Source: a virus
Lineage: Duplodnaviria; Caudoviricetes
Virus record (IMG/VR): IMGVR_UViG_3300032053_000004
Span: 64,001-128,000 of that record
Strand: one strand, 5' to 3'
DNA length: 64,000 nt
Part shown: piece after piece, positions 1,232-64,000 of the stretch
Numbering within the stretch: position 1 is the first letter of the stretch
Layout: each line of letters opens with the position of its first letter
Notes under the pieces: model-generated
Seen by the model: only the letters and a program-made list of their open reading frames with translations
Told to the model about the DNA's origin: nothing
The model's database searches: none
Program-made: the position numbers and the translations under genes

Positions 1232-2074
1232 GTGACTGTTTTAGTTATTGAGGGTGATGATGATTTCTTAGTTGAGCGTGCGGCTCGAGAAGAAGCCATA
1301 TCTTATCTTTCAGAAAACGAAAGTTTGGAGTTTTTTCTTCCTGGTGATTCTGATTCTTTTCAAGAGTATTTAAATGTTCCTTCTTTTAAAGAAGAAAGAC
1401 GTTCTGTTGTTATTCACGGAGCAACATTAATCCCTGATATTAAAAATGACGATCTATTGATTTTTACAAAAATTGGACAGAAACTAGACGCAACTAAACA
1501 TAAAATTGTAACAATTCGTTCTCCAAAAAATGAAAACGAAATTCTTCAATGGGTTTTAAGAGAAGGGGAAACGCTCAATATAGATCTAACGCGAGTCGCG
1601 CATGCTCTTTTTGTGAGCTGCGGATCTTGTCTCCGCAAAATCGTCATGGAAATTGAGAAAATTTCAATGATAACTCAAAAAGGAGGCGTTGTTACTCAAG
1701 AAGAAGCGAAATCTGTTTTATGTTTTTCAGCTGATCTTAAACCCATTCAAATGCTTGAAGCCATATTAGAAGGAAATTCTGCTAAAACATTAGCTTATTT
1801 TGACAAATTTGAAGAAAATAATGATATTGGATGGATTTTATCATACATGCATCGTCATGTATCTCAAGCTCTTCAATTTAAAAAGTTCCCAAATTCTAAA
1901 GTCCCATTTTTTGCGAAAGAGCTTTCATTTAAAATGAAATCTTTATCTCGTAGTGTAGACACATTTTGTGAATTAGACGGTCTTTTTCGTTCTGGAAAAC
2001 CGTCAGCTCGTTTAGGTTTGGGGTTTGAACTCGTGAGAATGGCGGAGGATATTAAAAATGTTAAGAGTGGTTGA
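1232..2074 (+). CDS. holA: DNA polymerase III delta-like clamp loader subunit
   Basis: N-terminal LVIEGDDDFLV, then LRKIVMEIEKI and VVTQEEAKSV, as in HolA; adjacent to the delta-prime gene. Confidence 0.7.
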   Translation: MTVLVIEGDDDFLVERAAREEAISYLSENESLEFFLPGDSDSFQEYLNVPSFKEERRSVVIHGATLIPDIKNDDLLIFTKIGQKLDATKHKIVTIRSPKNENEILQWVLREGETLNIDLTRVAHALFVSCGSCLRKIVMEIEKISMITQKGGVVTQEEAKSVLCFSADLKPIQMLEAILEGNSAKTLAYFDKFEENNDIGWILSYMHRHVSQALQFKKFPNSKVPFFAKELSFKMKSLSRSVDTFCELDGLFRSGKPSARLGLGFELVRMAEDIKNVKSG

Positions 2075-4853
2075 TAGTTCTCAAATTGATCAAATTTCTT
2101 CAAACATTATGCTTGAAGCCGGTCACTGGCCTCGCGTTTTTACAGCAGAAGGCATACATCCATTTGAACAAATTGAATGGAAAATAGTAGACGCTCGTAT
2201 TGAAGGGAAGGGCGGAAACGTCGTTTTTGAGCAAAAAGGAGTAGAAGTTCCTATTTGGTGGGGTCAGTCCGCCATAAATATTGTTGCTGATAAATATATG
2301 AGGGTCATTAATGGAGTTAGAGAAAATTCTGTTAAGCAAATTTTTTCCCGCGTAGCATCGACGATCCGTAAATGGGCAACCGAACAAGAATATTTTAATG
2401 TTGAGAAAGATGCTCAAATTTTTGAAGAAGAGCTGATTTTTGCTTTACTCCATCAATATGGAGCATTTAATTCTCCTGTCTGGTTTAATTTGGGTGTTCC
2501 AGATAGGAAACAAGCAGCTTCTGCGTGTTTCATATCGAGTGTTGAAGATACGCTTGATAGTATCATGAATTTTCAATGTTCTGAATTAAAAATTTTTGCT
2601 TTTGGCTCCGGATCAGGTGCTAATTTATCTAAGATTCGTTCGTCTTATGAAAAACTTTCTTCAGGTTCTTACACATCCGGGCCTCTTTCTTGGATGAAAG
2701 GTCTTGATGATTATGCCGGGGCTATGAAATCTGGCGGATCTACTAGAAATGCCGCTAAAATGGTTGTTCTTGATATTGATCATCCTGATATCCTTGAGAC
2801 TAAGGATGGACGTCCTGGTTTCATTAAGGCTAAGTCAGCAGCCGAGCAAATTGCCCATGATTTGATTCAAAAAGCTGGGTATACCGGATCTTTCGACGAT
2901 CCGAATTCAGCCTATAAGATAGTTCCACTGCAAAATGCGAATAATTCGATCAGCATAACTAACTCCTTCATGCAAGCAGTTATAGATGATGGTCTTTGGC
3001 AAACCAAAGAACGTTTAACTGGCAAACCAGTTCACACATATAAAGCACGTGATGTTTGGAAAGAAATTTCCATCGCAGCTTGGAAATGTGCTGATCCTGG
3101 TGTTCAATTTAATGATACTATGAATGAATGGCATACTACTCCAAAATCAGGAAAAATACGTGCCTCTAATCCATGCTCAGAGTATTTGAATATCGACAAT
3201 ACGGCTTGTAATCTTTGCGCTATTAATTTAACTAAATTCTTCGAAGGAAAGAAATTTAATCACGAAAGATTTGAACAGTCTGTTCGTTTGTTCGTTACTT
3301 CACAAAACGCTATCATAGCTAAGGCTGAGTATCCGACTGATGAAATAACTAAGAATAGTATAACGAACCGCCCCATAGGTTTAAATTACGGGGATCTTGG
3401 TGCGTTACTTATGAAATTCGGATACGGTTATGATTCTGATGAAGGTCGTGCTATTGCTGCTCGTATGGCAAGCCTTATGACCGGTCATGCTTATTTGACT
3501 TCTGCTCGTCTTGCGGCTCGAGTCGGAGCTTTTGAAGAATTTAAAGATAATCGAGACGATATGATGCGAATTATGCGAAAGCATAAAGAAGCGGATTCAG
3601 TCATTCTTTCTCGGTGGAATTTAGAGAATGATCCGATTTCGGATGATGTAGTTTCTGCTAGTTCCAAACTTTGGGATGACGTTATAGATTTTGGCTTGAG
3701 ATATGGATATAGTGTTTCTCAGGCCACTCTCCAAGCTCCTCTTGGGACTATCTCTTTCTTGATGGAAATGAATACGACCGGAATCGAACCTGCATTTTCT
3801 CTTGTTTCATATAAGACTATGGTCGGCGGCGGCTTCATGAAGCTTGTTAATGGGGCTGTCCGCGATGCTCTTGTAAATCTCGGATATTCACAAGAGTCTA
3901 CTGAAGAGATATGTCAGTATATTCATGACAATGATTGTATTGAGGGAGCTCCCGGGTTTAAAGAAGAAGATTTACCAGTTTTTGACTGCGCCATGCCTTC
4001 TGGTAGATCTAAGAGATCTCTTTCTCCTATGGCCCATATTAAGATGATGGCAGCGATTCAGCCGCTCATTACGTGCGCCCAAAGTAAAACTGTTAATTTA
4101 CCTAATTCCGTAACTCCTGAGGATATTGGCAATGTTTATATGGAAGCTTGGAAGCTTGGTTTAAAATGTGTTGCTCTTTATCGAGATGGTTGTAAACTTT
4201 CGCAACCTCTTGCGACCAAAGAACGCTCTGATGAGCAGCATGATATTAAGATGGTTGATGAACCGAGGAAAGACATTGAGCTATCGTTCGGTGCTAAACG
4301 TCGTCCTATGCCGAATGACGCAGAAGGTACCAGACATGTATTTCACATTGATGGGTATAAAGGTTATATAATAGTAAACGAATATGCTGATAAAACTCCG
4401 GGAGAAGTCTTCCTAAGACTTGGAAAACCAGGATCGACAGTTGCCGGTTTGATTGATGGTTTTACTAAGCTTCTCAGTATTTCTCTTCAATTTGGTGTTC
4501 CTCTTCCGAAATTGATCCATAGTTTTGTCGACACGAAATTTGAACCGGCTGGATTTACTCAAAATCCGAATATTCGATTTGCTAAGAGTTTTTATGATTA
4601 TTTATTCAAGTATCTTGATCTTAAGTATTACGATGGGGAAAATACTGGTTTAAATTTGAAGAAACTTGTTGCTGAAGAAAGTGAGTCTATAACACCAAAT
4701 TCTGTTGATAGTTTATACCCGACTCCTATTCCTGTTGCTCCGATTAAAAAGAATCTTGATTCTCCCCCGTGTACACGGTGCGGATCCATTACGATTCGTA
4801 ATGGATCTTGCCATCTTTGTACAAATTGCGGCATAACAACAGGCTGTAGTTAG
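2058..4853 (+). CDS. nrdJ: class II (adenosylcobalamin-dependent) ribonucleotide reductase with fused C-terminal NrdJb/TSCPD-like domain and Zn ribbon
   Basis: FNSPVWFN, ASACF, TRNAAKM, SNPCSE, ACNL, APLGTIS, SKTVN, YRDGCK; C-terminal CTRC..CHLCTNC..GCS; strong SD GGAGG. Confidence 0.96.
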   Translation: MLRVVDSSQIDQISSNIMLEAGHWPRVFTAEGIHPFEQIEWKIVDARIEGKGGNVVFEQKGVEVPIWWGQSAINIVADKYMRVINGVRENSVKQIFSRVASTIRKWATEQEYFNVEKDAQIFEEELIFALLHQYGAFNSPVWFNLGVPDRKQAASACFISSVEDTLDSIMNFQCSELKIFAFGSGSGANLSKIRSSYEKLSSGSYTSGPLSWMKGLDDYAGAMKSGGSTRNAAKMVVLDIDHPDILETKDGRPGFIKAKSAAEQIAHDLIQKAGYTGSFDDPNSAYKIVPLQNANNSISITNSFMQAVIDDGLWQTKERLTGKPVHTYKARDVWKEISIAAWKCADPGVQFNDTMNEWHTTPKSGKIRASNPCSEYLNIDNTACNLCAINLTKFFEGKKFNHERFEQSVRLFVTSQNAIIAKAEYPTDEITKNSITNRPIGLNYGDLGALLMKFGYGYDSDEGRAIAARMASLMTGHAYLTSARLAARVGAFEEFKDNRDDMMRIMRKHKEADSVILSRWNLENDPISDDVVSASSKLWDDVIDFGLRYGYSVSQATLQAPLGTISFLMEMNTTGIEPAFSLVSYKTMVGGGFMKLVNGAVRDALVNLGYSQESTEEICQYIHDNDCIEGAPGFKEEDLPVFDCAMPSGRSKRSLSPMAHIKMMAAIQPLITCAQSKTVNLPNSVTPEDIGNVYMEAWKLGLKCVALYRDGCKLSQPLATKERSDEQHDIKMVDEPRKDIELSFGAKRRPMPNDAEGTRHVFHIDGYKGYIIVNEYADKTPGEVFLRLGKPGSTVAGLIDGFTKLLSISLQFGVPLPKLIHSFVDTKFEPAGFTQNPNIRFAKSFYDYLFKYLDLKYYDGENTGLNLKKLVAEESESITPNSVDSLYPTPIPVAPIKKNLDSPPCTRCGSITIRNGSCHLCTNCGITTGCS

Positions 4854-5337: not shown

Positions 5338-5577
5338 ATGTCAGATAATGAACGTGATAGATATGCTTATGGATATGACGCCGGGACAATTGTAGATGGC
5401 GTCGTTCATTTGGATTTATCTACAAATAAATTTGTTCTCATAGATGACGATGGAGAGGTTTTTGACCCCAACGCTGTTTTACAAACATTAATGGGGAAAA
5501 AGGTTCGTATAACTATGATTTCTTTCGAATCCATGGAAGCTTTAGAAAAGCTTCTCGCAAATCAGCCTAAGAATTAA
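5338..5577 (+). CDS. hypothetical protein
   Basis: 79-aa ORF; G-TAATGT 6 nt before the ATG; shares TTAA with the stop of the convergent gene. Confidence 0.7.
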   Translation: MSDNERDRYAYGYDAGTIVDGVVHLDLSTNKFVLIDDDGEVFDPNAVLQTLMGKKVRITMISFESMEALEKLLANQPKN

Positions 5578-6695
5578 ACTTGATCATCACTAAGATTTTT
5601 CTCCAAATATGGGATGCAGTCGTTTCTTCTAGATATTAAAACTCTGCATCCCTTGTGTAAATTAAGATCTTTAAACATTGAAAGATTATGGAGAGAAACA
5701 TTTGTAATTGTTACTCCTCCTATATTTATGGGTTCAACAACCGCTACACCGGTTACACGACCTGAAGATCCGACCTGCCATTTCACATCTATAACTCTTG
5801 ATTCTCTCATTGAAGGATCAAATTTCCAGGCCACTTGACCGTTCGGACGAAGATTTAATTCTCCTAACTCTTGGAGATCATTTAAATTATTAACGGAAAC
5901 AACCATTCCATCGATTTCGTACGGAACACTTTCTCGATCTATACCTTTGAATATTTTAACTATATATTCTTTATCTGTACATGCGGCAGCCTCCGGGACT
6001 TCAAACCCTAAGGACTTGAGTTCCTTAAAAGCATATGATAATGTCGATGGTTGGTCTATTTCTTTTACCATCCAATATGCTAGAAAATTTAGATTAACAC
6101 AATCCTTTCCTCCACCTTTTTTGTCCCGGACTTTGCCTGCGGCAGTATTTCTTGGATTAGCGTAAGATTCTGAATATTTTTCTTCAAAAACTTTCTTGAG
6201 TATAACTATTTCGCCGCGAACTATGACATCTATTTCTATTGGAAGTTTTTTCGGTATACTTGGAACCTTTGACATATTTGATAGGACTTCTTCTCCTATC
6301 ATCCCATCCCCTCTAGTAACGGCCGATATTAACACGCCTTTTTGGTATACTAACTCCATGGAGGATCCATCTATTTTATGGGTTATATGGATAGACCCTG
6401 TGTTTAATTTCTCTGCCCATTCTAAAAATTCTGCCTCAGAATTAACTTTATTAAGGGATCCCATTGGTATTTTGTGCGGAACTTTTTCCCAGACAGAAAT
6501 TTCAGTTGGGGCTGCTCCGACCAAAATTAGTTCTTTATGATTAGGGTCGAGAGATTTTAATTCATCAATTAATGCATCATATTCTTGGTCCGACAATATT
6601 GTATTTAAATTATAATAACCTTCTCTGGCTTCTCGGATCTTTAAAGATAACTCTTCTATTCTTTCTGAGTTCATTTGATAATATTTTACATCCAT
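5574..6695 (-). CDS. ligA: NAD-dependent DNA ligase, N-terminal half (domain Ia, adenylation domain, OB fold)
   Basis: YY..LSDQEYD, HKIPMGSLNK, motif I KIDG, TRGDG..GE, VRGE, NPRNTAAG, YEIDGMV, AWKF, WQVGSSGRVT, SLHN; ends RRNDCIP, equivalent to RAGDVIP. Confidence 0.95.
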   Translation of the reverse strand: MDVKYYQMNSERIEELSLKIREAREGYYNLNTILSDQEYDALIDELKSLDPNHKELILVGAAPTEISVWEKVPHKIPMGSLNKVNSEAEFLEWAEKLNTGSIHITHKIDGSSMELVYQKGVLISAVTRGDGMIGEEVLSNMSKVPSIPKKLPIEIDVIVRGEIVILKKVFEEKYSESYANPRNTAAGKVRDKKGGGKDCVNLNFLAYWMVKEIDQPSTLSYAFKELKSLGFEVPEAAACTDKEYIVKIFKGIDRESVPYEIDGMVVSVNNLNDLQELGELNLRPNGQVAWKFDPSMRESRVIDVKWQVGSSGRVTGVAVVEPINIGGVTITNVSLHNLSMFKDLNLHKGCRVLISRRNDCIPYLEKNLSDDQV

Positions 6696-6727
6696 AAGCT
6701 ATTTGTTAATTATAATTTAGAGGAAAT
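6696..6727. promoter_or_regulatory. candidate bidirectional promoter
   Basis: 32-bp divergent gap containing the palindrome AATTATAATT (6708-6717), which gives TATAAT on both strands. Confidence 0.4.
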
Positions 6728-7228
6728 ATGTCTCATCCTACATTCTCAAAAATAGCGGCCGAAATTTCAGTCATGATTCAGTCTCGGACTAGAATCAAAA
6801 CCGCAGCTGAAAGAGACGCTGAATGGCATCGAGTTAATAGTTATATAGCGGACATTTTGAAAGATGTTCATATGACTTATGCTAAACTCGCCCGACTTCA
6901 GAGCGATTTTACTGGGGATGAACTCGTTCAATTAGAAGAATTATCTGAAAGGATTCTTTCTCTCGGTTCTTCAATGTCTAAATTTTCTAAGGCTTTCTAT
7001 GAAGGTCAGTTTAATATGCTTCCTGCGGATACCACGTTTGGTGGCGGTGGCGGTGGCGGTGGTGGCGCTGGGATGCCCGGAGGAGGTTCTCCAATGCCCG
7101 AGGGCGCACCGGGTGGTATAGATATCTTCGAAGAGGAAGAAACCGCCCCGGGATCGGAAGAAGAGGTAGAGGTTGTAGAGGAGGATGAAGGTCAGGGTCA
7201 GGAAGAAGAGGAAGAGGAAGAGGAATGA
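6728..7228 (+). CDS. unknown helical protein with Gly-run and acidic tail; putative internal virion protein
   Basis: SD GAGG; FSKIAAEIS and KTAA motifs; poly-Gly from GGTGGC repeats; Glu-rich C-terminus. Confidence 0.75.
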   Translation: MSHPTFSKIAAEISVMIQSRTRIKTAAERDAEWHRVNSYIADILKDVHMTYAKLARLQSDFTGDELVQLEELSERILSLGSSMSKFSKAFYEGQFNMLPADTTFGGGGGGGGGAGMPGGGSPMPEGAPGGIDIFEEEETAPGSEEEVEVVEEDEGQGQEEEEEEEE

Positions 7229-8025
7229 TCAATATATTTCGAATTGCCAGCAGAATTGCTGGCAAGAGTCTTCTTTTAATGGAAGAAATGGGATACAATC
7301 CATATATTCGTGTAGATAATATAAGTTATTTATTGCCTGAGGAGTGCAGCAGTAGTGAAATTATTGAATCTATATTCAATGCTTGGATAAAGTCTGGATT
7401 TTCAGGTGATTCTCTCATTTCTCAGAAAAAATTATTTGATACCCCAAGTAATTTTCTTCATGAAATTGAACATCTTGTTTTAGATCCTAATTTTGATTTA
7501 AGACTCCAAGCCCATAAATCAAAATTAACTGATTCTCCGTCTCATCATGGGATAGAATCTATGATGGAAGAAGTTATGACTCAACGTCTCTTTCGTTTCA
7601 TTCTTCCTGATGAAGCAGATTGTCATGATGCAATAGATAATAGTATATGGTTTTCACACAATAGTCGTTTAGAAAATGATAAACTGTTGGATATGATTTC
7701 TTCTGCTCCAATGTCTAATTCTACTTTAGAAAATATTAGAGATTCAGCTATATATAAAACAAAACAAAAATATGAGAATGGTGAGATAAATACTAGCCCG
7801 GATCGACCGGGGGTGATAGAAATGAATGTTCAAATCTTAATTGATTTTCTCATGAATGCTTTGAGCAAATTTGATATATGGAAAGAAATTATTTCTGATG
7901 AACAGGAAGAAAAATGGAGAAAATTTGCTCTTAATTTAAGAAATGAATTCAAGAAACTTTCTCGAATTTACGGAATTTCTATGGATTGGGATACTGATCG
8001 AATGATTCAATACGAAGAACAGTAG
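7225..8025 (+). CDS. putative zincin-like metallopeptidase with IASRIA N-terminus
   Basis: FLHEIEH (HExxH) with a downstream MMEEV; N-terminus MINIFRIASRIAG. Confidence 0.5.
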   Translation: MINIFRIASRIAGKSLLLMEEMGYNPYIRVDNISYLLPEECSSSEIIESIFNAWIKSGFSGDSLISQKKLFDTPSNFLHEIEHLVLDPNFDLRLQAHKSKLTDSPSHHGIESMMEEVMTQRLFRFILPDEADCHDAIDNSIWFSHNSRLENDKLLDMISSAPMSNSTLENIRDSAIYKTKQKYENGEINTSPDRPGVIEMNVQILIDFLMNALSKFDIWKEIISDEQEEKWRKFALNLRNEFKKLSRIYGISMDWDTDRMIQYEEQ

Positions 8026-8051
8026 ATATTATCTCAATTGTAAGTTGGTGC

Positions 8052-8849
8052 ATGGTCACACCGACTGTTGAATATTTTCAAATACCTAGTATATGTCCTG
8101 TTTGTTCCGGTCTTTTAACGATAGACGGGCAATTTTTATTTTGTAAGTCCAAAACTTGCCCTGGAAAGCTTTCCGGGGCAATAAGAGTATGGGTGGAACG
8201 TCTTGGGCTCCTTCATTGGGGTGATACTCTCATAGATAAACTATGTGAGAATAAGATTTCTTCCATATCTGATTTATATCGATTATCGATTGAAGATATT
8301 GCTTCCTGTTGTTCAGGAGTCAAATTTGCTGCTAAATGCCATAAAGTTCTACATTTAAATAAGTCAATTCCTTTACAATTATTGATTTCTGCCTTAAATA
8401 TTCCGAATTTAGGTATATCTACTGCTACTGACATAGTTTCATCAGGAATAAGCACTATTAGTTCACTTCTTAGTGTTTCTGTTGAAGATCTTGAAAAAGT
8501 TCCGAATGTTGGAAAATTAACTGCTCAAAAAATATATGATGGTATTCAAGAAAAAAGAGTAGTTATTCTTGAATTAGAAAGTGTGCTAAATATAATCGTT
8601 CCTACATCCGGTCCTCTTGTTAACTTATCATTCTGTATAACTGGTCCTCTTTCAAAACCTAGAAAAGCTATTGAAAAATTGATAATGGATGCTGGAGGAA
8701 CTGTTAAAAGTTCAGTCGGTTCAGGTGTAACCCACTTAGTGACCAACGTTCCAGACACGACTTCTTCAAAGATGCAAAACGCAAAGAAGCATGGGACTCA
8801 GGTTATTTCAGAGATCAATCTTTATTCGCTCATTGAGGCTACGAATTGA
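8052..8849 (+). CDS. ligA: NAD-dependent DNA ligase, C-terminal half (Zn finger, HhH, BRCT)
   Basis: PSICPVC...CKSKTC; GLLHWG, LNIPNLG and VPNVGKLTA HhH motifs; BRCT FCITG..R...IMDAGG...SV...VTHLV..SSKMQNAKKHG. Confidence 0.93.
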   Translation: MVTPTVEYFQIPSICPVCSGLLTIDGQFLFCKSKTCPGKLSGAIRVWVERLGLLHWGDTLIDKLCENKISSISDLYRLSIEDIASCCSGVKFAAKCHKVLHLNKSIPLQLLISALNIPNLGISTATDIVSSGISTISSLLSVSVEDLEKVPNVGKLTAQKIYDGIQEKRVVILELESVLNIIVPTSGPLVNLSFCITGPLSKPRKAIEKLIMDAGGTVKSSVGSGVTHLVTNVPDTTSSKMQNAKKHGTQVISEINLYSLIEATN

Positions 8850-11056
8850 TGGAACAACTTAATTGCAAGATTTCCAGCATTGTTTTTTCCAATAAACAAA
8901 CGGGGTTTTGTATATTAAAAGCAGTTCCTGAAGGTAAATCATCAATGATTACGGTCAGGGGTAATTTCCCTGGCGTTTCTATGAATATTGGACTCAAAGC
9001 CACTTTTACTGGTGAATTTGTTGAACATGCTAAGTTTGGACGTCAGCTTCAGGCTTCATCTTGCGAAATTAAACCGGAAAAAGGAAAAAACGGAGTAGTT
9101 TCTTATTTACTTTCTTGTGTTCCTTCTATAGGTCCTATAACAGCTTCTAAACTTTATGGACACTTTGGGGATGAACTTCTTACTATCTTAGAAACAGATA
9201 TTGAAAAAGTACGTGATCTCAAATTTTTAACTAAAACGCAGATAGAAGCCATTATCGATGAGTGGTCAGAGTCATCTGAAACTAGAACATCTTCAGTCTT
9301 CTTAAGAGATCTCGGTTTAAATTTCAATCAAATAAAACTAATTTACACAGCATTCAGGGCAGATACGAAAAAAGAAGTAACGGATGATCCTTATTCCATA
9401 TGTGAATTCCGTGGAATAGGTTTTATTACTGCCGACCAAATAGCTAGAAAATTGAACGTTGGAGTCGATGACCTTCGTCGAGTTCGCGCATTAATCCTTG
9501 CCGCCTTAAGGGATCTTTCTTCTATAGAAGGCCACTCTTGTGCCACTTCCGATCAAATCAAAAATTATATAAATCGAATGTTTAAGCGACAAGGAATTGA
9601 ATCTTTTTCTCACGGTGATTATGTGTCTGACGTTGCTTTTTACCCGTCACTTATTGAACTTGAAGCCTCGGAAGAGATCCACTCATATAATGGTTTCTTA
9701 TATTTAATGTCAAATTGGCAGTATGAATCTGAAATAGCTAAATACATATCTGCTATCGTAAATAACACTCCGAGAAATCTTGGGGATTTTGACTCTATTC
9801 TTTCTGAATTTGAAAAACTAAAGAATTTAGAACTTTCTGAAGATCAGAAAAAGGCTTTTTCTTTATTAAAGGATGGTCGTATTTGTGTTATTTCTGGATA
9901 TCCTGGAACTGGAAAAACTCTTCTTATGAGTGCTTTCGTTCATTTATTTGAGAAAAATAATATTGATTATACTCTTCTTGCTCCGACTGGTATTGCTGCA
10001 AAACGTTTGTCTCAATTAACCGGAAAATCAGCCTATACTATTCACAGAGCTCTTGGATGCGATAGAGAAGGAAATTGGGAATTTAATAGTAGTAATAAGT
10101 ATATTGTTGACGCAATCGTTTTAGATGAAAGCTCGATGGTAGACAATCAAACTTTCTACCATTTGATTTCTTCCATTTCTGACACAACTATAGTGGTTTT
10201 AGTCGGTGACGCTGCTCAGCTTCCTTCTGTCGGTTCTGGACAGGTTTTAAAAAGTTTCTTAAACAGTCCTAAAGTTCCTCATGTTAGTTTAACTCGTATT
10301 TATCGACAAGAACATCAGTCTGGAATTATTGATATTGCTCATAAAATTTTAAATGAAGAATTAGTTAACACAAAATTTGATGAGAAAAATGAGTTTTTGT
10401 TCTTAAATTTCAATATTGATGAAGTTGTCGATGAAATTAAGAAGATGACTTCTGTTATGTTAGTTAAAAATTCGAATTTTCAAGTCATATCCCCAGTTTA
10501 TGACGGAGAACTTGGTGTTGATAACTTAAATATTAAACTTCGGAGTGTTTTAAATCCTGGATATGAAAACCTTTCTAAATTAAAACATGGTACTACCGGT
10601 TTATATGAAGGTGATCGCATCATGATCATCAAAAATGATTACGGTAGAATGATTTTTAATGGAGATGTTGGAAAAGTTCATCGTATTTCAATCAAATCAG
10701 ATGAAGTTGAAGTAAAGATTTTTAATTGGTTTGATCAAGAGTCAAAAGTCTCAAGATATGTTGACAAAATTTTTACATTCACTATTGAAGAAGCTAGATA
10801 TATAATGAAAGTTGCTTATGCTTGTACGGCTCATAGAGCACAAGGACAAGAGTTCGATTATGTTCTCATGCCAATGACCATGGCTTATGGCCCAATGTTA
10901 TATAAGAATTTAATTTATACCGCGATTACTCGTGCTAGAAAGAAAGTTTTCATATTCGGTGACCCGAAAGCGTTTCGTTTCGCTATTCAAAACAATCGTG
11001 AAATGGATAGAAACACGAATCTGAAAAATTTAATTGAGGACAGTTTAAGTGTTTGA
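8846..11056 (+). CDS. recD2: RecD2 (RecD/TraA family) SF1B helicase
   Basis: N-terminal OB fold plus HhH (GIGFITADQIA); GYPGTGKT, LAPTGIAAKRL, VLDESSM, LVGDAAQLPSVG, LTRIYRQ, AYACTAHRAQGQE, YTAITRARK. Confidence 0.93.
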   Translation: MMEQLNCKISSIVFSNKQTGFCILKAVPEGKSSMITVRGNFPGVSMNIGLKATFTGEFVEHAKFGRQLQASSCEIKPEKGKNGVVSYLLSCVPSIGPITASKLYGHFGDELLTILETDIEKVRDLKFLTKTQIEAIIDEWSESSETRTSSVFLRDLGLNFNQIKLIYTAFRADTKKEVTDDPYSICEFRGIGFITADQIARKLNVGVDDLRRVRALILAALRDLSSIEGHSCATSDQIKNYINRMFKRQGIESFSHGDYVSDVAFYPSLIELEASEEIHSYNGFLYLMSNWQYESEIAKYISAIVNNTPRNLGDFDSILSEFEKLKNLELSEDQKKAFSLLKDGRICVISGYPGTGKTLLMSAFVHLFEKNNIDYTLLAPTGIAAKRLSQLTGKSAYTIHRALGCDREGNWEFNSSNKYIVDAIVLDESSMVDNQTFYHLISSISDTTIVVLVGDAAQLPSVGSGQVLKSFLNSPKVPHVSLTRIYRQEHQSGIIDIAHKILNEELVNTKFDEKNEFLFLNFNIDEVVDEIKKMTSVMLVKNSNFQVISPVYDGELGVDNLNIKLRSVLNPGYENLSKLKHGTTGLYEGDRIMIIKNDYGRMIFNGDVGKVHRISIKSDEVEVKIFNWFDQESKVSRYVDKIFTFTIEEARYIMKVAYACTAHRAQGQEFDYVLMPMTMAYGPMLYKNLIYTAITRARKKVFIFGDPKAFRFAIQNNREMDRNTNLKNLIEDSLSV

Positions 11057-45807: not shown

Positions 45808-46152
45808 TTAAACCGAAAGAAGAGCCATCGTCGTTTCTTCGTCGGAGGCTCGTCGGAGCTTTTCTAAAATAACTTCTTCTGGACCATAAAAAAAGAATAC
45901 TTCTCGTCCAAATTTATGATAAAATATTTCTCGTCCTTCTGCCTTTTCTTGAAAATTCACGCCTCTTAAGAAAATATTGTAAGGGCTGCTCGTATCAGAT
46001 TCTTTTCTATATTTGTTGGCCCTGTCAGATAAAGTTGAGTCTGACAGTTTATATAATAATCTTTCCCCTATACTCTCGTCCGTAACATTTTTCCCAGCTA
46101 TGGAAGTTAGTCTTCGGAATTCTTTATCTATTGATTTCGACTGCTTTACCAT
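45808..46152 (-). CDS. hypothetical protein
   Basis: 114-aa ORF in the minus-strand block. Confidence 0.7.
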   Translation of the reverse strand: MVKQSKSIDKEFRRLTSIAGKNVTDESIGERLLYKLSDSTLSDRANKYRKESDTSSPYNIFLRGVNFQEKAEGREIFYHKFGREVFFFYGPEEVILEKLRRASDEETTMALLSV

Positions 46153-46190
46153 ATACTAATATACAATTTTCGATCTCTCATTTACAAAGA

Positions 46191-46514
46191 CTAAGAGTCA
46201 ACGACTTCTTCGCATAAAGCTTCATTCATCATTTTCTCAATTTCTTCTTTTTCCATTCCCGATTTAATTGCTGCTTTCATTGCTTCATTAAGGGCAAATT
46301 TTGGATTAATAAAATTTCCGAAATTTGTATTTCCAATAGTTATATGTTGCCCTCCAGGCATTCCATTATATGGGATAGTTTGTTGACCCATCGGATCTAT
46401 TATCCAAGTTCCGTTCATATTCGGATATATAGCGGTATCCCCAATAGTAATCGTTGTTTGAGAAATATTTGTTGATGTTTGAGGAATATACAAGTTGTGA
46501 TCACCTAATGACAT
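46191..46514 (-). CDS. hypothetical protein
   Basis: 107 aa; SD GGAGG. Confidence 0.7.
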   Translation of the reverse strand: MSLGDHNLYIPQTSTNISQTTITIGDTAIYPNMNGTWIIDPMGQQTIPYNGMPGGQHITIGNTNFGNFINPKFALNEAMKAAIKSGMEKEEIEKMMNEALCEEVVDS

Positions 46515-46532
46515 GTTGGCCTCCGTAAAACT

Positions 46533-48461
46533 TTACTTTTCTTGAGCAAATCCTCCTAGTGGGGTGACTTGCTCTTCGTCATTTATCTCGTATGGGGATA
46601 TGTCTCTTGATGGAATGAAGTCATCATCTTCAGACCCTTTCCCATTTACTCCAGGTTTTCCATAAACAGGCTGCTCTTTTTTCCCCTTAATTAATTCTTC
46701 TTCGGTTATCCAGCCTCGATTTCCCATAACATCCATATTCATTCTTAAAAATAGCATTCTGTCTTGCGATAACTCAGATCCTTCCACAAATTTAACAGAT
46801 TTCGGGTTCGGGAGAATAGACGCTAAAAACATTGATTGGCTGAGACTTAGTTGATAAGGCTCTTTCTTAAAATAATAATAGGATGCTGGTCCTATTCCGT
46901 ATAAATTCGGACCATATTCGATTATGTTTAGATAGGTTTCTATAATTTGGTCTTTAGATAAAGACTGTTCAAGCCATTTGGCTAAAACAAGCTCTTGTAA
47001 TTTTCTCGCGATGTTTTTATTTCTATCTAGCCAAAGATTTTTGGCTAATTGCATTGTTATAGTGCTTCCTCCTCGTATAAATTTCCCGAACACTAAATTA
47101 TCTCTTAAAGAACCTTCTAAGGCTTGAAATATGATCCCGCCATGCTTTCGAAACCCCGGATCTTCGAATAATCGAACTCCTAATTCTACATATGGAGACA
47201 TTTCGGATATTGGAGTCCAGTCAGATGTCCCTGGACCTACAATAACTTCTTTCGGTTTCCCGTCTGAAGAGTATATCTTATGCTTAAATGTCTTTCTAAA
47301 TCTTTTCGTATCAAGTTCTTCTGGAACTTTTGTTATACTGCAGTCTATTTTTTGTTGAATCCAAGCGTCTGATTTGCTTAATCTTCCAAAATTCTTGTAA
47401 TCATATAATATTTTTATTTTTCCTTTTATTTTTCCATCAGATTCAATCCCTTTAATTTTTTCGTTCATTCCATCGGGAATTGAGTCTAGCAAATTTTGAC
47501 AAGGAGTTTCGGGTAAATCAATTTCGAAAAGAATTAAATATTTATCCTTGCTGAAAGATATCGGTGTTTTAATTTTCATGAATTCTAACATATTATCTGT
47601 GTGTAATATTGTTCCATCTAAACTTATATGCCCTGTTGTTTCTATTTTAAATTTTGGTATATCTATGGTCTCTTTGGATAAAACCCTATGGTTTATCTTG
47701 ATCGGACCAATTTCCGCATTTGTTTTGAATTCTATTTTTTCTCCTTCATCTAATTTTAAAAATATGTTAGAATCTATAGATGTACATTCTAAATCCACAA
47801 GTTTGGGAGGATTTTCTTTTGAACATTCTTTCAATAGTTTAAAAGAGATCCCAGACTCATTCGGATTTATTGATATTTTTGCTGGTCCATAAGAATTTAT
47901 GGAGAAAGATTCAATTTCTGTTTTGAATTTAGATACTTTTTCATAAATTCTAAAAAGTTTTTCTAAATTTCTCGGTTCTTCTGATTTTTCTTTTTTCTTA
48001 GTTTTTATTGATAACTCTTTGGAATTTATAGATTTTATTTGTTTTTGATTCAATTCTATTTTTGTATTTTTTGAATTTATAACGAAAGACTCATTCTCAA
48101 ATAAAATTCTTTCCATATCTATGAATATTTGTTCTCCAATTTTCTTTATATTCCGAACATTAGTTATGAATTTTCCTCTCTTATCAGTATAAATAACCTC
48201 TCCTGCTCCTGTCTCTATATTTTGACTTGTAAAATTAATCTTTAATAGTTTGAATTTAGCGTTATTTTTATTTTTATCAAATACTTGAACATCTGATATT
48301 TTCACTTCATGCAGAGACGGCCAAGCCCACCCCATCTTTACTTCTAAATCAAATTCTTGAGCTTTTGCTTTAATTTTTGTATGAGCAAAAGAATTAAACC
48401 AAATTAAAGCGATTGATATTATTATGAATAGGAATATTGAAAACTTGATCAGTTTTTTCAC
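46533..48461 (-). CDS. membrane-anchored monofunctional peptidoglycan transglycosylase (GT51)
   Basis: N-terminal TM helix; GT51 motifs EDPGFRKHGG, GGSTITMQLAKN, RKLQE, KDQIIETYLN, LASILPNP; no transpeptidase domain; start moved to GTG 48461. Confidence 0.92.
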   Translation of the reverse strand: MKKLIKFSIFLFIIISIALIWFNSFAHTKIKAKAQEFDLEVKMGWAWPSLHEVKISDVQVFDKNKNNAKFKLLKINFTSQNIETGAGEVIYTDKRGKFITNVRNIKKIGEQIFIDMERILFENESFVINSKNTKIELNQKQIKSINSKELSIKTKKKEKSEEPRNLEKLFRIYEKVSKFKTEIESFSINSYGPAKISINPNESGISFKLLKECSKENPPKLVDLECTSIDSNIFLKLDEGEKIEFKTNAEIGPIKINHRVLSKETIDIPKFKIETTGHISLDGTILHTDNMLEFMKIKTPISFSKDKYLILFEIDLPETPCQNLLDSIPDGMNEKIKGIESDGKIKGKIKILYDYKNFGRLSKSDAWIQQKIDCSITKVPEELDTKRFRKTFKHKIYSSDGKPKEVIVGPGTSDWTPISEMSPYVELGVRLFEDPGFRKHGGIIFQALEGSLRDNLVFGKFIRGGSTITMQLAKNLWLDRNKNIARKLQELVLAKWLEQSLSKDQIIETYLNIIEYGPNLYGIGPASYYYFKKEPYQLSLSQSMFLASILPNPKSVKFVEGSELSQDRMLFLRMNMDVMGNRGWITEEELIKGKKEQPVYGKPGVNGKGSEDDDFIPSRDISPYEINDEEQVTPLGGFAQEK

Positions 48462-48474
48462 ATGAGAAAGTACA

Positions 48475-49017
48475 TCACGAAGCTGCAATTTTTGCTGCTA
48501 TGACCCGAATTTTTTCTTGAACTTCGTGGATTAAAGCAATTTTCTTTATAGAACCTGTTCTCCCCATATCGTTTATTATTTCTTTCGCAACTGATCCTAT
48601 CAGATCTGTTGTTATATACTTCTTTACGATTTTTTCAAGATATGGGTCATCTTCTTGTTCTGAAAAAGGTATTTCACTTGGTGGAACTGGTTTTGCTGCA
48701 AGTGCGTAATCGAGATCACCTTGCAGTTTTCTTACCATCAATTTTAAAGTAGAATCTTTTGGTCTAATAAAAATATCTTTAACTATTGAATTACTAATTT
48801 CGTCATCTAGTATTCTTTCCGCATCTTGACGAATTTTAACCGGGTCTTTTTGACTTTTTGCTGGCATACCTTGAGTTATATTTTGAAATATTAAATTGAC
48901 TAATGTTTCATTTAATGAATCTAAAGCGTCGTATATAGCTCCTTCTATTAATTTGGTTCCAAATTCTTTTTGAAGATAGTCTTGTAAATCGTGGCTGAGT
49001 GCAGCAATTCTTCCCAT
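48475..49017 (-). CDS. helical hypothetical protein ending in an IAAKIA motif
   Basis: Probable start ATG 49017; C-terminus RTGSIKKIA...IRVIAAKIAAS. Confidence 0.7.
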   Translation of the reverse strand: MGRIAALSHDLQDYLQKEFGTKLIEGAIYDALDSLNETLVNLIFQNITQGMPAKSQKDPVKIRQDAERILDDEISNSIVKDIFIRPKDSTLKLMVRKLQGDLDYALAAKPVPPSEIPFSEQEDDPYLEKIVKKYITTDLIGSVAKEIINDMGRTGSIKKIALIHEVQEKIRVIAAKIAAS

Positions 49018-49040
49018 GAAAACCACAATTTACAAGAATT

Positions 49041-59156: not shown

Positions 59157-62100
59157 TTGTCAGTAGACAACCCAAGAGGTGCAAGAGGCTTTATCGGACC
59201 GACAGGCCCGGCTGGATCGACAGGTCCAACGGGCGCTATTGGGCCTGTCGGTACTCAAGGCTCTCCGGGTGCTCCTGGTCCAACTGGTCCAACTGGTGCT
59301 ATTGGTCCTATTGGTACTCAAGGTGTTACTGGGCCTCAAGGATCTCCAGGCCCCACAGGCCCGATAGGTCCGACAGGTCCGACAGGTCCGCAGGGTTCAC
59401 CTGGTTCACCTGGTTCCACTGGATTGATTGGACCTCAGGGGTCTCCTGGTTCACCTGGTCCCACAGGGCCTCAAGGTTCTCCCGGTGTAACCGGTTTAAC
59501 CGGAGCAACGGGTCCTCAAGGTTCCCCTGGTTCCCCTGGTTCCCCTGGCCCCACAGGACCTCAGGGATCACCTGGATCACCTGGCCCCACTGGACCTCGA
59601 GGAACTCAAGGGTCACCTGGTCCAACAGGACCACAGGGGTCTCCTGGTTCCCCCGGCCCCACTGGTGTAACAGGGCCTCAGGGCTCTCCTGGTTCCCCCG
59701 GCCCCACTGGACCCCAGGGTTCTCCTGGCCCCACTGGACCTCAAGGATCGCCGGGTAGTCCTGGTCCAACTGGACCACAAGGTTCACCTGGTTCACCTGG
59801 TTCACCTGGATCACCTGGCCCAACTGGCCCACGTGGTTCTCCCGGTTCACCTGGTTCTCCCGGTTCACCTGGTTCTCCCGGCCCCACTGGACCCCAGGGT
59901 TCTCCTGGCCCCACAGGGCTTCAAGGAACCCAGGGTTCACCTGGTTCTCCTGGACCAACTGGACCAACTGGACCCCAGGGTTCTCCTGGCCCTACAGGCC
60001 CTCAGGGTTCTCCAGGTTCTCCTGGCCCAACTGGTCCTACTGGACCCCAGGGATCACCTGGCCCCACTGGACCCCAGGGTTCTCCTGGCCTGCGTGGGGT
60101 TACTGGAGCTACCGGTCCAACCGGAGCGCGTGGCCCCACTGGACCAACGGGGCCAGTTGGACCAACGGGGCCTCAGGGTTCTCCTGGTAGTCCCGGTCCT
60201 ACTGGTCTGCAAGGCCCGATAGGATCCCCTGGTCCAACCGGTCCTCAAGGTTCTCTTGGATCCCCAGGTCCCGCCGGTCTACAAGGGCCGGTTGGTTCAC
60301 CTGGATTAACTGGACCTCAAGGCCCTCAGGGTTCTCCTGGCCCAACAGGACCAACAGGACCAATTGGTCCTGTACCTTCTTTTTATCCTGCTCCTGTTAG
60401 TACAGCTGTCTTTTCTGGTTTTCAGGCTACACATTCAATATTCACTTCAATTCCTAGCTCTTATATATCTTTAAATTTAAATTCTGAAGCTGATATTATT
60501 TCTTTCTTAAATGTTGCTATTGATTCTTCTGGTGGATCGGTAAACAACACTCCAATAATAAGAATTGTTATCGATAACATACCTGGACCCGAATTTCAAT
60601 TATTCAACGCAAACGCTCAACCTGAAAATTCTTCGGCGGCTTATGTTCTTCGTCGTCCTGCTGGCGTTCACACTTTATGGGGAGAGTGGCGTCGCTCGGC
60701 TGGTAATCGAGTTATGGTTTTGGAGAATGGCTCTCTCGTAGCTTTCTCCAATCAAGGGGTTCAAGGAGCGACTGGCCCACAAGGGCCAACCGGTCCCGCA
60801 GGTGCAACCGGTTCCCAAGGATTAATAGGTTCTCAAGGATTCCAAGGTTCTCCTGGTCCTATTGGACCTCAAGGTGCAACAGGACTGGTCGGACCGACAG
60901 GACCGATTGGTTCTCCAGGCCCGACAGGTCCTCAAGGTGCAACTGGTTTAGCAGGTGAAACTGGTCCTATCGGTCCTCAAGGAACTCAAGGAACAACAGG
61001 AACTCAAGGAGCAACAGGTGTCCAAGGCGTAACTGGATCGACAGGTCCTCAAGGCTCGATTGGTTCCCAAGGATCACCCGGGCCACCTGGTCCAACTGGT
61101 GCCCAGGGTGCAACTGGTGCCCAGGGTGCAACTGGTGTCCAGGGTGCAACTGGATCGACAGGTCCTATCGGTCCACAAGGAACTCAGGGTTCTCCAGGGC
61201 CAACCGGTCCGCAAGGTTCTCCAGGATCAACTGGTGCTGCAGGGTCTACGGGTGTTACAGGACCGCAGGGAAACCCTGGCTCACCGGGTCCTACTGGTCC
61301 AACCGGTCCTCAGGGTTCTCCCGGTCCGACTGGACCTCAAGGATCACCAGGTTCAACCGGACCACAAGGTTCCCCTGGTTCTCCAGGATCGACTGGCGCA
61401 GCAGGTTCCACAGGTCCTCAGGGTTCCCCTGGCTCACCTGGCCCCACTGGACCTCAGGGTTCCCCTGGGTCTCCAGGTCCGACTGGTCCTGCTGGGTCCA
61501 CTGGTGTTACTGGGCCCCAAGGCTCACCGGGGTCTCCAGGACCAACAGGTCCTCAGGGTTCCCCTGGGTCTCCAGGTCCGACTGGTCCTGCTGGAGCCAC
61601 TGGAGCCACGGGTCCTCAGGGCTCTCCAGGTCCTACAGGCCCAGTGGGTCCGACTGGAGTAACTGGGGCCACAGGGCCACAGGGTTCACCTGGTTCTCCA
61701 GGGCCAACTGGCGCACCGGGTCAGACCGGGGTTACTGGACCTCAAGGTTCACCCGGTCCGACTGGTCCTCAGGGTTCACCCGGTAGTACAGGACCAACAG
61801 GTCCTCAGGGTTCCCCTGGCTCACCTGGCCCCACTGGACCTCAGGGTTCCCCTGGGTCTCCAGGTCCGATTGGTCCTCAAGGTTTCCCAGGCTCACCAGG
61901 TCCAACTGGCGCCGCTGGCCCCCAAGGAAGTCCAGGTTCTCCAGGGCCAACTGGCGCAGCTGGGCCTACCGGTGTTACAGGTGCGACTGGGCCTCAAGGT
62001 TCACCTGGGTCTCCTGGCCCCACAGGCCCTCAAGGCTCACCTGGCCCCACAGGCCAAGCTGGTGCTACTGGCGCTCAAGGAAGCTCCGGATCCCCAGGGC

Positions 62101-64000
62101 CTACAGGAGCAGCAGGTCCAACAGGTCCAACAGGTTCCATCGGTCCTCAAGGAACTCAAGGAACTCAAGGTTCACTTGGCTCCCCAGGCCCAACGGGACC
62201 TCAAGGCTCCCCTGGACCGACAGGTCCCCAAGGTCTCACGGGTGTAACTGGTCCACAAGGCTCACCAGGTCCAACTGGTGCAGCAGGTTTTACTGGGGTT
62301 ACTGGACCTCAGGGTTCACCTGGTCCCACCGGTCCGGCAGGGCCTACTGGCGTTACGGGGCCTCAAGGTTCTCCTGGTCCGACTGGCCCACAGGGTTCTC
62401 CAGGAAGTCCTGGACCCACGGGAGCAGCAGGTCCAACCGGAGTTATTGGAGCCACTGGGCCTCAAGGTAGTCCTGGACTTACGGGACCGCAGGGCTCACC
62501 CGGTCTTACAGGTCCTCAAGGAAGTCCAGGCTCCCCAGGTCCAACGGGTCCTGCTGGATCTACTGGAGTAACGGGAGCAGCTGGCCCCGCAGGTGTCACT
62601 GGTGCAACTGGTCCTCAGGGTAGTCCAGGAAGTCCTGGGGCTACTGGACCTCAAGGATCACCTGGATCGCCAGGACCTACTGGACCTCAAGGCTCCCCAG
62701 GCTTGCCTGGCCCGACTGGACCTCAAGGCTCACCAGGCAGTCCGGGATCGCCTGGCCCTACGGGGCCACAAGGTAGTCCTGGTCCAACAGGACCACAAGG
62801 CTCACTTGGTTCTCCGGGCCCAACAGGTCCCCAGGGATCTCCTGGTAGTCCAGGTGTAACTGGAGTGGCCGGGCCTATTGGTGCAACTGGAGCTACTGGT
62901 CCTCAAGGCTCCCCCGGTCCTACTGGTCCTCTTGGATCTCCAGGTCCCATTGGACCTCAAGGGTCTCCTGGATCACCTGGCCCCACTGGTGCTGCGGGTC
63001 CACAAGGGTCTCCTGGAAGTCCAGGCCCCACTGGAGCAGCTGGCCCCACAGGTGTCACTGGTGCGACTGGGCCTCAAGGCTCACCTGGGCCACAAGGACC
63101 TCAGGGAACTCAAGGTAGCCCTGGTCCCACTGGGCCTCAGGGCTCACCAGGCTCGCCTGGTCCCACTGGAGCTATTGGAGCTATTGGAGCCACTGGTCCT
63201 CAAGGCTCCCCCGGTCCTACTGGTCCTCAGGGATCACCTGGCCCCACAGGCCCCTTAGGTAGCCCAGGAACACAGGGATCCCCAGGCTCGCCTGGTCCTA
63301 CTGGTCCACAGGGCTCTCCAGGACCTACTGGTCCACAGGGAAGTCCAGGTAGCCCTGGACCAACGGGTGCTGCTGGACTTACTGGTGTTACAGGCGCTAC
63401 TGGTCCACAGGGCTCTCCAGGACCTACTGGTCCACAAGGTTCACTAGGTAGTCCTGGTCCAACCGGTCCTCAGGGTAGTCCGGGATCAGCGGGGCCTCAG
63501 GGTTCGCCAGGACCAACCGGACCTCAAGGAGCAACTGGACCGCAAGGTTCAACAGGGCCACAAGGATCTCTTGGATCCCCAGGACCAACTGGGCCTCAGG
63601 GATCACCAGGACCAACTGGTATAGCTGGCCCCACTGGTGTCACAGGAGCAACTGGACCTCAAGGGTCACCTGGGTCCCCAGGTCCGACTGGTCCTCAGGG
63701 ATCACCTGGTAGCCCTGGACCAACCGGTCCGCAAGGTTCCCTTGGATCCCCTGGACCAACGGGAGCTGCTGGAGCCACAGGTGTCACTGGAGCCACTGGA
63801 CCTCAGGGTTCTCCGGGTCCAACCGGACCTCAAGGTTCTCCAGGTTCACTTGGCCCCACTGGGCCTCAGGGTAGCCTGGGTCCCACAGGGCCACAAGGTA
63901 GCCCTGGTTCTCCAGGTCCAACTGGCCCTCAAGGATCACCAGGAAGTCCTGGTCCTACAGGAGCAGCTGGCCCTACTGGTGTTACCGGTGCCACAGGCCC
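59157..64000 (+). CDS. very long collagen-like fibre protein with an internal globular domain (3'-truncated, missed by the ORF track)
   Basis: Frame open from TTG 59157 ([16 protein letters not shown]..) and still in Gly-X-Y phase at base 64000; about 128-aa non-collagen beta domain at 60375-60755. Confidence 0.93.
59178..60374 (+). repeat. collagen Gly-X-Y block 1 (about 133 triplets)
   Basis: Gly codons at 59178 and 60366 are 1188 nt = 132x9 apart; GPT/GPQ/GSP dominate. Confidence 0.95.
60756..64000 (+). repeat. collagen Gly-X-Y block 2 (at least about 360 triplets)
   Basis: Gly codons at 60756 and 63960 are 3204 nt = 356x9 apart. Confidence 0.95.

Follow-up and report, generated by a model that had tools for sequence, protein, structure and literature searches.

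The window analysed here is a stretch of 64,000 nucleotides from an uncultured sediment phage with a genome of roughly 400 kb. Within it, the domains of an NAD+-dependent DNA ligase (LigA) are divided between two open reading frames (ORFs), one on each strand, and each frame has a stop or start of its own. This raises the question of whether the two ORFs still make one enzyme, and of how the arrangement arose. A preliminary description had proposed a functional two-subunit LigA, broken at the OB-fold/Zn-finger junction and laid out by one inversion carrying two virion-type genes. Both ORFs were present at the coordinates it claimed, among the following features.

5338-5577, plus strand: conserved flanking gene (79 aa), outside the inversion
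5574-6695, minus strand: LigA N-half (373 aa), with domain Ia (NAD+ site), adenylation domain and OB fold
6696-6727: divergent intergenic region, 32 nt between the starts of the N-half and the acidic-tail gene
6728-7228, plus strand: acidic-tail gene (166 aa), with a helical N-terminal part, a Gly/Pro-rich linker and an acidic tail
7225-8025, plus strand: orphan gene (266 aa), flanked by the acidic-tail gene and the C-half
8026-8051: right junction, 26 nt from the orphan gene stop to the C-half ATG
8052-8849, plus strand: LigA C-half (265 aa), with a Cys4 Zn finger, HhH domain and BRCT domain
8846-11056, plus strand: RecD2-type helicase (Pfam), the conserved neighbour directly downstream of the C-half

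The position of the break was determined by alignment to E. coli LigA (2owo/4glx). Residue 364 of the N-half corresponded to E. coli residue 387 and residue 11 of the C-half to residue 404, which places the break in the OB/Zn-finger linker (E. coli residues 388-403), as had been claimed. The residues left unaligned at the break (9 + 10) take the place of 16 in E. coli, so nothing was lost or duplicated, again in agreement with the preliminary description. In phrog_3869, a phage family of full-length ligases with 656 profile positions, the two halves covered the consecutive stretches 5-383 and 386-651, and the C-half aligned with residues 402-656 of T. filiformis LigA. The N-half ends five residues past the conserved ...YLEKNL, and the C-half starts eight residues ahead of the conserved FQIP..CPVC. 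The sequence beyond conserved LigA amounted to an N-tail of 5-9 aa and a C-head of 8-10 aa, and both were homologous between subclades. A split intein was rejected, since extensions of this size leave no room for one at the broken ends and no intein match was found in Pfam. Association of the halves would consequently have to be non-covalent.

Each half carries the residues expected of its part of the enzyme. In the N-half, Pfam matches were obtained to DNA_ligase_aden (PF01653, 1.2e-47) and to DNA_ligase_OB (PF03120, 3.6e-21, residues 299-369), together with a weak match to Nlig-Ia (0.0026). In the alignment, the NMN-binding residues Y22, D32, Y35 and D36 of E. coli corresponded to Y27, D36, Y39 and D40. 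The active-site lysine of the KxDG motif was K107, with K107-I-D109-G110 matching K115-L-D-G of E. coli. Across 28 clade members, Y27, D36, D40, K107, D109, G110, E162 and K291 did not vary. The C-half matched HHH_5 (5e-12) and BRCT (2.8e-12), and its Zn-finger cysteines (C15, C18, C31 and C36) as well as HhH and BRCT positions were unvarying in 25 clade members.

For both halves, pN was 0.11-0.32 against a saturated pS of 0.67-0.97. Synonymous sites were saturated even between the closest pairs, which made an exact dN/dS unobtainable, and pN is therefore given against pS instead. By this comparison both halves are under purifying selection and are equally constrained, so that neither shows the relaxed selection that would have spoken against a two-subunit enzyme. 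Decay to a pseudogene was ruled out by this conservation and by pN lying well below pS in each half. Strain SNPs in the N-half comprised eight synonymous and two conservative changes.

The arrangement is also not a product of assembly. In two sediment samples other than the source (X3 and X4), one contig of ~35 kb each spanned positions 5470-9300 with 7-8 mismatches. In a third (X5), two contigs each spanned one junction. Both junctions are thus covered by independently assembled contigs from three other sediment samples, and misassembly was excluded. The stretch occurs in 24 runs, none of the 24 being on record as RNA.

Based on these sequence data, the best reading of the locus is a functional two-subunit LigA. 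The two ORFs would be the subunits of a single NAD+-dependent ligase, the N subunit (Ia, adenylation and OB domains) carrying the chemistry and the C subunit (Zn finger, HhH and BRCT domains) supplying the DNA clamp. As in the T5-type LigA/LigB heterodimer, the two would most probably be held together non-covalently by the contact between OB fold and Zn finger, which is intrachain in ordinary LigA. A structural model of the complex scored 0.64, compared with 0.00 for the best control; of 80 solved complexes 58 attained the mark used for such models, as did 2 of 110 mismatched pairs. Its runs shared at least 59% of contacts, with a partner pLDDT of at least 79. The modelled interface was OB residues 301-350 against Zn-finger residues 6-46. 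The result as a whole may echo the solved structures of LigA and 9HU3.

T5 already provides an example of LigA in two subunits divided at this point (ligA/ligB, AAU05253/AAU05254; PMC3632103), and a two-chain homologue has been solved (PDB 9HU3/9I5I), with a chain A of 339 aa and a ‘DNA ligase subunit B’ of 248 aa. Residues 14-337 of 9hu3 chain A aligned with residues 19-368 of the N-half, and residues 3-236 of chain B with residues 9-252 of the C-half, so that the ends of the two chains coincide with those of the two ORFs. As in the T5-type LigA/LigB, the enzyme family and the cut are the same and the halves are translated separately, with no intein. The T5-type genes are, however, adjacent and co-directional, whereas here each is on a different strand and 1.36 kb containing other genes separates them. 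The N-half scored 354 bits against full-length phrog_3869 and 174 bits against half-length phrog_3359, and overall the full-length family outscored the half-length families phrog_3359 and phrog_3498. Together with the fused sister and outgroups described below, this shows that the split is not shared by descent with T5-like phages, and its origin is independent of theirs.

To establish how widely the layout occurs, viral contigs were scanned. A single-protein query returned one close relative, and an alignment query was needed to recover the others. The opposite-strand layout was present in all 21 IMG/VR loci that have an N-part at least 48% identical, on contigs reaching 436 kb, and the halves were always 0.5-2.5 kb apart. 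Stand-alone clusters at 47-63% identity numbered at least 120 for N-halves and about 120 for C-halves. The layout did not arise as an isolated event in this genome; it is of long standing and has become fixed throughout a large clade of huge phages.

The un-inverted relatives comprised three lineages with a fused ligA and one in which the gene is split in place. In the fused L016 and L022, ligA is full-length and the acidic-tail gene diverges from it on the minus strand. In the split genomes the order is N-half (minus), acidic-tail gene (plus), C-half (plus), and neither the 79 aa gene at the flank nor RecD2 has changed. Whether the genome was fused or split, homologues of the 79 aa gene were in plus orientation (L016_78, L018_84, L020_86 and L002_93), and in every relative RecD2 followed directly downstream of the C-half or, where the gene is fused, of LigA. 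In the window, the stop of the 79 aa gene overlaps that of the N-half by 4 nt (5574-5577), which constitutes the left junction, and the N-half is the sole minus-strand gene inside a plus-strand block. In the in-place split (L024/L045), the two cistrons are separated by a stop, 1 nt and an ATG, with a GGAGG (internal Shine-Dalgarno) inside the N-tail.

These comparisons changed the account of the inverted segment. The acidic-tail gene is the constant divergent neighbour of the 5' end of ligA and belongs to the segment; homologues 47-69% identical occurred in L002, L018 and L020, where they are on the plus strand if the C-half sets the direction, and on the minus strand in fused L016. The orphan gene had a homologue in none of ~90 related loci. 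The distance between the N-half and C-half starts was 1357 nt here and 531-760 nt in most relatives, which leaves space for the acidic-tail gene alone. The orphan is accordingly a lineage-specific insertion confined to this phage, and the unit inverted was the N-half with the acidic-tail gene, not a segment with two passenger genes. Nor did the label ‘virion-type’ hold for the two intervening genes: they showed no virion features and no Pfam or PHROG matches, and for the acidic-tail gene a protein Atlas search likewise gave no lead. A gTAAGTT element five nucleotides ahead of the C-half ATG had also been pointed out. TAAGTT occurred within 22 nt of just 2 of 58 gene starts, and this non-recurring element was rejected as a translation or promoter signal.

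In the phylogeny, the sister and outgroups of the flipped clade were fused. On the ligase tree, fused forms were also placed inside the flipped clade (AU p = 0.0015 and 0.0046). RecD2 served as an independent marker for both synteny and tree; its best topology was the same, and a single flipped clade was not rejected (p = 0.215). The nesting, significant on the ligase tree only, suggests re-fusion. In a wider tree, at least 28 state changes were counted, the OB/Zn linker having been split repeatedly and independently.

From these data a history can be proposed. First, a stop and an ATG would have divided the ancestral single-chain gene in situ, within the OB/Zn linker. The acidic-tail gene and N-half would then have been inverted at the tiny intercistronic gap, an event without cost, since each half would by then have been a cistron of its own, and the flipped state would have become fixed in the crown clade. 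Later, as the two nested fused genes suggest, the segment may on at least two occasions have returned to its first orientation and re-fused. The single inversion of the preliminary description does relate this layout to the un-inverted L016, L022 and L024; it probably does not account for the split, which is likely to have come earlier, given the same cut in place in a basal relative, an order that rests on one basal lineage and long branches. Overall, a two-subunit LigA that was split in place, later inverted and fixed in the crown clade, with possible re-fusions, is the account that we consider probable. A bolder version, in which the linker acts as a reversible hinge that was cut, flipped, kept across the radiation, then flipped back and re-fused in frame at least twice independently, is tentative, and we place it slightly below an even chance. 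The re-fused linkers would then look like the start of an N-tail joined to the end of a C-head.

The inversion might instead itself have cut an intact ligA in the OB/Zn linker, the stop and start coming from juxtaposed sequence and the L024 split being parallel and unrelated. A single inversion does suffice to connect the fused layout of L016 and L022 with the flipped one, and the linker has been split independently elsewhere, as the state changes in the wider tree and the endonuclease lodged in L056/L081 indicate. Such a cut would, however, have required a working C-half start at the moment of breakage, whereas the basal relative displays a two-cistron stage without inversion. In addition, the N-tail and C-head of flipped genomes together read as a single continuous linker of normal composition. 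This course of events is therefore unlikely. A programmed invertible segment of the Gin/Hin type, flipping during infection to rebuild a single-chain ligA, would be feasible in geometry, and the arrangement has changed more than once in the clade. Against it, the junctions of 20 genomes showed no inverted-repeat homology (z < 1.5 throughout), no resolvase-type invertase (PF00239) was found in the 202 kb record (47% complete), and each half retains its own stop or start. The flipped-back form was seen in no contig of four other samples, although rare variants are invisible in contigs. A switch of this kind is already largely refuted, and we regard it as extremely improbable.

The remaining alternative is that the halves no longer cooperate, the N-half acting alone in self-adenylation or as a minimal ligase and the Zn-HhH-BRCT protein serving as an independent DNA-binding or scaffold protein, possibly for other enzymes. 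N-terminal LigA fragments can still self-adenylate, and the opposite strands mean that the halves are not translationally coupled. The record also carries two further ATP-ligase-type frames (PF01068, 45 and 43 bits), so LigA need not be the sole or essential ligase. Yet nick sealing requires the Zn and HhH domains of LigA, both halves were retained close together in every one of the 21 related loci under equal constraint, and their interface was modelled confidently against controls. The fused genes nested among split ones further imply that the halves stayed compatible. Independent halves are thus very unlikely, and the two-subunit enzyme is retained as the preferred reading.

What is new at this locus is the flipped layout on opposite strands, kept by a whole clade of huge phages; no new enzyme or mechanism is revealed. 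It is a natural experiment in which LigA would tolerate both the OB/Zn cut and the full uncoupling of its cistrons, one on each strand, throughout a long radiation of ~400 kb phages, which supports the view of the catalytic core and DNA clamp as autonomous modules joined by a portable OB/Zn interface. For annotation, a ‘truncated’ LigA in these phages should not be taken as a pseudogene, as its partner is encoded upstream on the opposite strand. Given the possible re-fusions, the clade is useful for the study of gene fission and fusion. If the hinge interpretation is true, gene fission by inversion would be reversible in nature, and selection would make little difference between a replication enzyme in one chain and the same enzyme in two.

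With respect to expression, the C-half is probably co-transcribed with the upstream plus-strand genes and the N-half may be transcribed from the 32 nt divergent region. Promoter-like sites lie back to back there, on the minus strand at 6736-6709 (10/12 matches) and on the plus strand at 6685-6713 (9/12). They are only a hint, since the sigma-70-like scan gave 15 sites in total with 13.7 expected from shuffled sequence.

Several other split phage and bacterial genes resemble this one in part. Free-standing homing endonucleases produce phage ‘genes in pieces’, as in nrdA-a/mobE/nrdA-b of Aeh1. Similarly, in the distant L056 and L081 the ligase is split at the same OB/Zn linker with a TnsA-like endonuclease ORF (PF08722) in the gap. 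In the window, no nuclease was recognized in the gap, its two ORFs (6728-7228 and 7225-8025) being without Pfam or PHROG matches, and the LigA halves differ from such genes in lying on opposite strands. In cyanobacteria, dnaE-n and dnaE-c are likewise opposite-strand halves of a replication enzyme; these are joined by a split intein, unlike the LigA halves, which have no intein parts. Jumbo phages have been reported to carry NAD+ ligases, and the available part of that report does not mention a split or inverted LigA (PMC7824862). The same part describes, in group 2.2 jumbo phages, a minimal Pol III alpha in pieces encoded by distant genes (PMC7824862), and to that extent the present locus is a further case, with a different enzyme, of huge phages tolerating splits at domain boundaries.

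The window comprises bases 64001-128000 of a 202 kb IMG/VR virus record, which CheckV estimated to be 47% complete; this suggests a phage genome of roughly 400 kb. The N-half of the NAD-dependent DNA ligase (LigA) was the lone minus-strand gene inside a long plus-strand block, in which the ligase region was arranged as follows:

5338-5577, plus strand: flanking gene, 79 aa
5574-6695, minus strand: LigA N-half, 373 aa; adenylation domain (1.2e-47) and OB fold (3.6e-21), domain Ia match weak
6728-7228, plus strand: acidic-tail gene, 166 aa
7225-8025, plus strand: orphan gene, 266 aa
8052-8849, plus strand: LigA C-half, 265 aa; HhH (5e-12) and BRCT (2.8e-12)
8846-11056, plus strand: RecD2 helicase, 736 aa

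The N-half covered positions 5-383 and the C-half positions 386-651 of phrog_3869, a full-length phage LigA profile of 656 positions. When aligned to E. coli LigA, N-half residue 364 corresponded to residue 387 and C-half residue 11 to residue 404. Based on these alignments, the cut lies in the linker from OB fold to Zn finger, with no residues missing or duplicated. ORFs, domains and alignments therefore agreed with the preliminary description of two clean halves on opposite strands, split at this junction with nothing lost or repeated. The gTAAGTT element that had also been ascribed to the C-half start did not hold up, as gTAAGTT was near only 2 of 58 starts. Promoter-like sites were well placed in the 32 nt divergent region, although the overall scan was not above chance.

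The stretch was present in 24 sediment-metagenome runs. One contig of ~35 kb spanned 5470-9300, with 7-8 mismatches, in each of two non-source samples, and in a third, two contigs each crossed one junction. Since the layout was reproduced across both junctions in contigs from other samples, misassembly of the split ligA was excluded. Strain differences within the N-half comprised eight synonymous and two conservative changes (V210I, V121M). Decay of either half was likewise ruled out by invariant residues and by pN well under a saturated pS. Invariant among 28 N-parts were Y27, D36 and D40 at the NAD site (Y22, D32 and D36 in E. coli), K107, D109 and G110 of the KxDG motif and other motif residues; among 25 C-parts, all four Zn cysteines and numerous positions in the HhH and BRCT domains were. 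For nine genome pairs, pN was 0.11-0.32 and pS was saturated at 0.67-0.97 in both halves, with the C-half slightly more conserved.

Separately, the dominant-strain contigs of three non-source samples (X3, X4 and X5) matched the window from 5470 on and, between the positions equivalent to 5032 and 5470, carried ~11.7 kb that differs from it. A minor strain agreed with the window. This region, just left of the ligase junction, is therefore a strain-variable insertion hot spot.

The proposed two-subunit LigA was modelled as a complex using both alignments. The model scored 0.64 against 0.00 for the best control; 58 of 80 solved complexes attained this mark, as did 2 of 110 mismatched pairs. At least 59% of contacts agreed between runs, with a partner pLDDT of at least 79. 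The modelled interface, between OB residues 301-350 and Zn-finger residues 6-46, was the within-chain contact of ordinary LigA. Because LigA and the two-chain ligase 9HU3 are already solved, this pass may reflect those known structures, and demonstrates likeness rather than binding.

In a protein search, C-halves standing alone formed at least 120 clusters (223-299 aa, 47-63% identity), and N-halves standing alone likewise at least 120 (360-412 aa, 52-63% identity); contigs of 300-440 kb carried many of them. IMG/VR was then scanned with an N-part alignment and 80 loci were classified. Relatives shared the opposite-strand layout in 21/21 loci whose N-part had 48% or more identity to that of the window, the start codons of the halves being 531-2496 nt apart. 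In one locus at 46% identity (L045, of the L024 type) the halves were adjacent on one strand, and at 42% or less almost all loci were fused, with a few same-strand splits leaving 67-810 nt between halves. In two same-strand gaps (L056, 6087-6776; L081, 6109-6909) a gene for a Zn-ribbon and TnsA-like PD-(D/E)xK endonuclease (PF08722) was present, likely a selfish element that caused the cut or preserves it. In L067 (IMGVR_UViG_3300009514_000001), an N-half-type LigA of 41% identity ended after the OB fold and no C-half was detected in the 5 kb flanking it on each side; its partner may lie farther off, or the protein may be an N-only ligase.

The layout had been attributed to one inversion carrying two genes. 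Two related loci, L016 (382 kb contig) and L022, encode a full-length plus-strand ligA (P0200, 630 aa, and P0242, 654 aa) followed by RecD2, with a small minus-strand gene diverging from the ligA start. In L016 this gene was a homologue of the acidic-tail gene (47-69% identity among five genomes compared); in L022 a 202 aa minus-strand gene occupied the corresponding position. In split genomes the acidic-tail gene was on the plus strand and still diverged from the N-half start; it was always divergent from the 5' end of ligA, whether ligA was fused or split. The 79 aa gene and RecD2 kept their strand in all genomes compared. Because the acidic-tail gene flips with the N-part between unchanged flanks, inversion of the segment containing both would interconvert the fused and flipped layouts. 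An inversion, of this segment, was thus retained. The second gene, the 266 aa orphan, lacked homologues in all related loci and is a later insertion. The split probably preceded the inversion. In the basal L024, and identically in L045, the same cut was found in place as a stop, 1 nt and ATG, with GGAGG within the N-tail codons and a 157 aa minus-strand gene still upstream. L024 ligA is a two-cistron gene of T5 type, with translational coupling. In P0200 the linker between the two parts is 7 residues long; at this point the window has an N-tail of 5 residues and a C-head of 8. The most economical order would be fused, split in place, then inverted at the intercistronic gap.

The acidic-tail protein (window 6728-7228(+); also L002, L016, L018 and L020) has ~150-180 aa; its N-part is helical, and a Gly/Pro-rich linker leads to a tail that is strongly acidic. 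Its fixed pairing with ligA suggests a replication-linked role.

In a tree of concatenated N- and C-parts, L016 and L022, both fused, were nested within the crown clade of flipped genomes, behind starred branches (96 and 98). A single clade of flipped genomes was rejected by the AU test (p = 0.0015, or 0.0046 once the unstable L043 row was removed). The RecD2 tree gave the same best topology, with L022 in a 99-supported and L016 in a 90-supported group of flipped genomes; its AU test did not reject monophyly of the flipped clade (p = 0.215). The N-tails (NLD plus LEEAA, AKEAA, LEAA or AEAA, then stop) and C-heads (MTESAGHEL or MTEGSRPDL before F; MG[ND]QD.) were recognisably homologous between the two subclades containing fused forms, which argues that the stop/start pair arose once. 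The linker of fused L022, A-EGRPS..., resembled the L037 N-tail AKEAA* plus C-head MT-EGSRPD, and that of L016, NLD-H-G.GN, the L033 N-tail NLDHSL* plus C-head MGNQDI. As the peptides are short, this likeness is only suggestive of N-tail starts joined to C-head ends. Overall, we put the chance that the segment flipped back and ligA was joined again at about even. A programmed switch was largely ruled out: junctions showed no inverted-repeat homology in 20 flipped genomes (all z < 1.5), and the record, at its 47% completeness, revealed no invertase of the resolvase type.

A two-piece LigA cut at the OB/Zn linker is of a known kind, since T5 has an NAD-dependent ligase of subunits A and B (PMC3632103), as annotated also in T5-like phages, the chain ends of the two-chain ligase PDB 9HU3/9I5I coincide with the ends of the window's two ORFs, PHROGs contains half-length LigA families, and a wider tree of 268 N-parts required at least 28 changes of half/full state. 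New are the placement of the halves on opposite strands, the fixation of this state across a large clade of huge phages, the constant pairing of split ligA with a conserved acidic-tail gene and, possibly, reversion to a fused gene. Outside the window, at G000:C1:5987-6478(-) and 143105-143506(-) of the phage record, two frames (open frames of 376 and 271 aa) matched PF01068 (45 and 43 bits) and could be DNA or RNA ligases of the ATP-dependent type; this phage may therefore have ligases besides LigA.

Adjoining the ligase locus was a class II ribonucleotide reductase (window 2058-4853, 931 aa), which was ~400 aa longer in L002 (7432-11448, 1338 aa) and L022 (1-3855, 1339 aa). The L022 protein carries an intein with its homing endonuclease, given its Intein_splicing and LAGLIDADG_3 matches. 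RecD2 frames in L029, L034 and L038 were 1187, 1093 and 980 aa compared with 736 aa in the window, and these large insertions are possibly inteins. Collagen triple-helix repeats (PF01391, 2e-225) made up an open frame (59157-63998(+), at least 1614 aa) that ran off the window end and accounted for a G+C jump to 0.50-0.63, the rest of the phage being about 35%. The window's only other minus-strand block (45808-49026(-)) encodes, among others, a transglycosylase-domain protein of 651 aa (PF00912, 1.1e-44).
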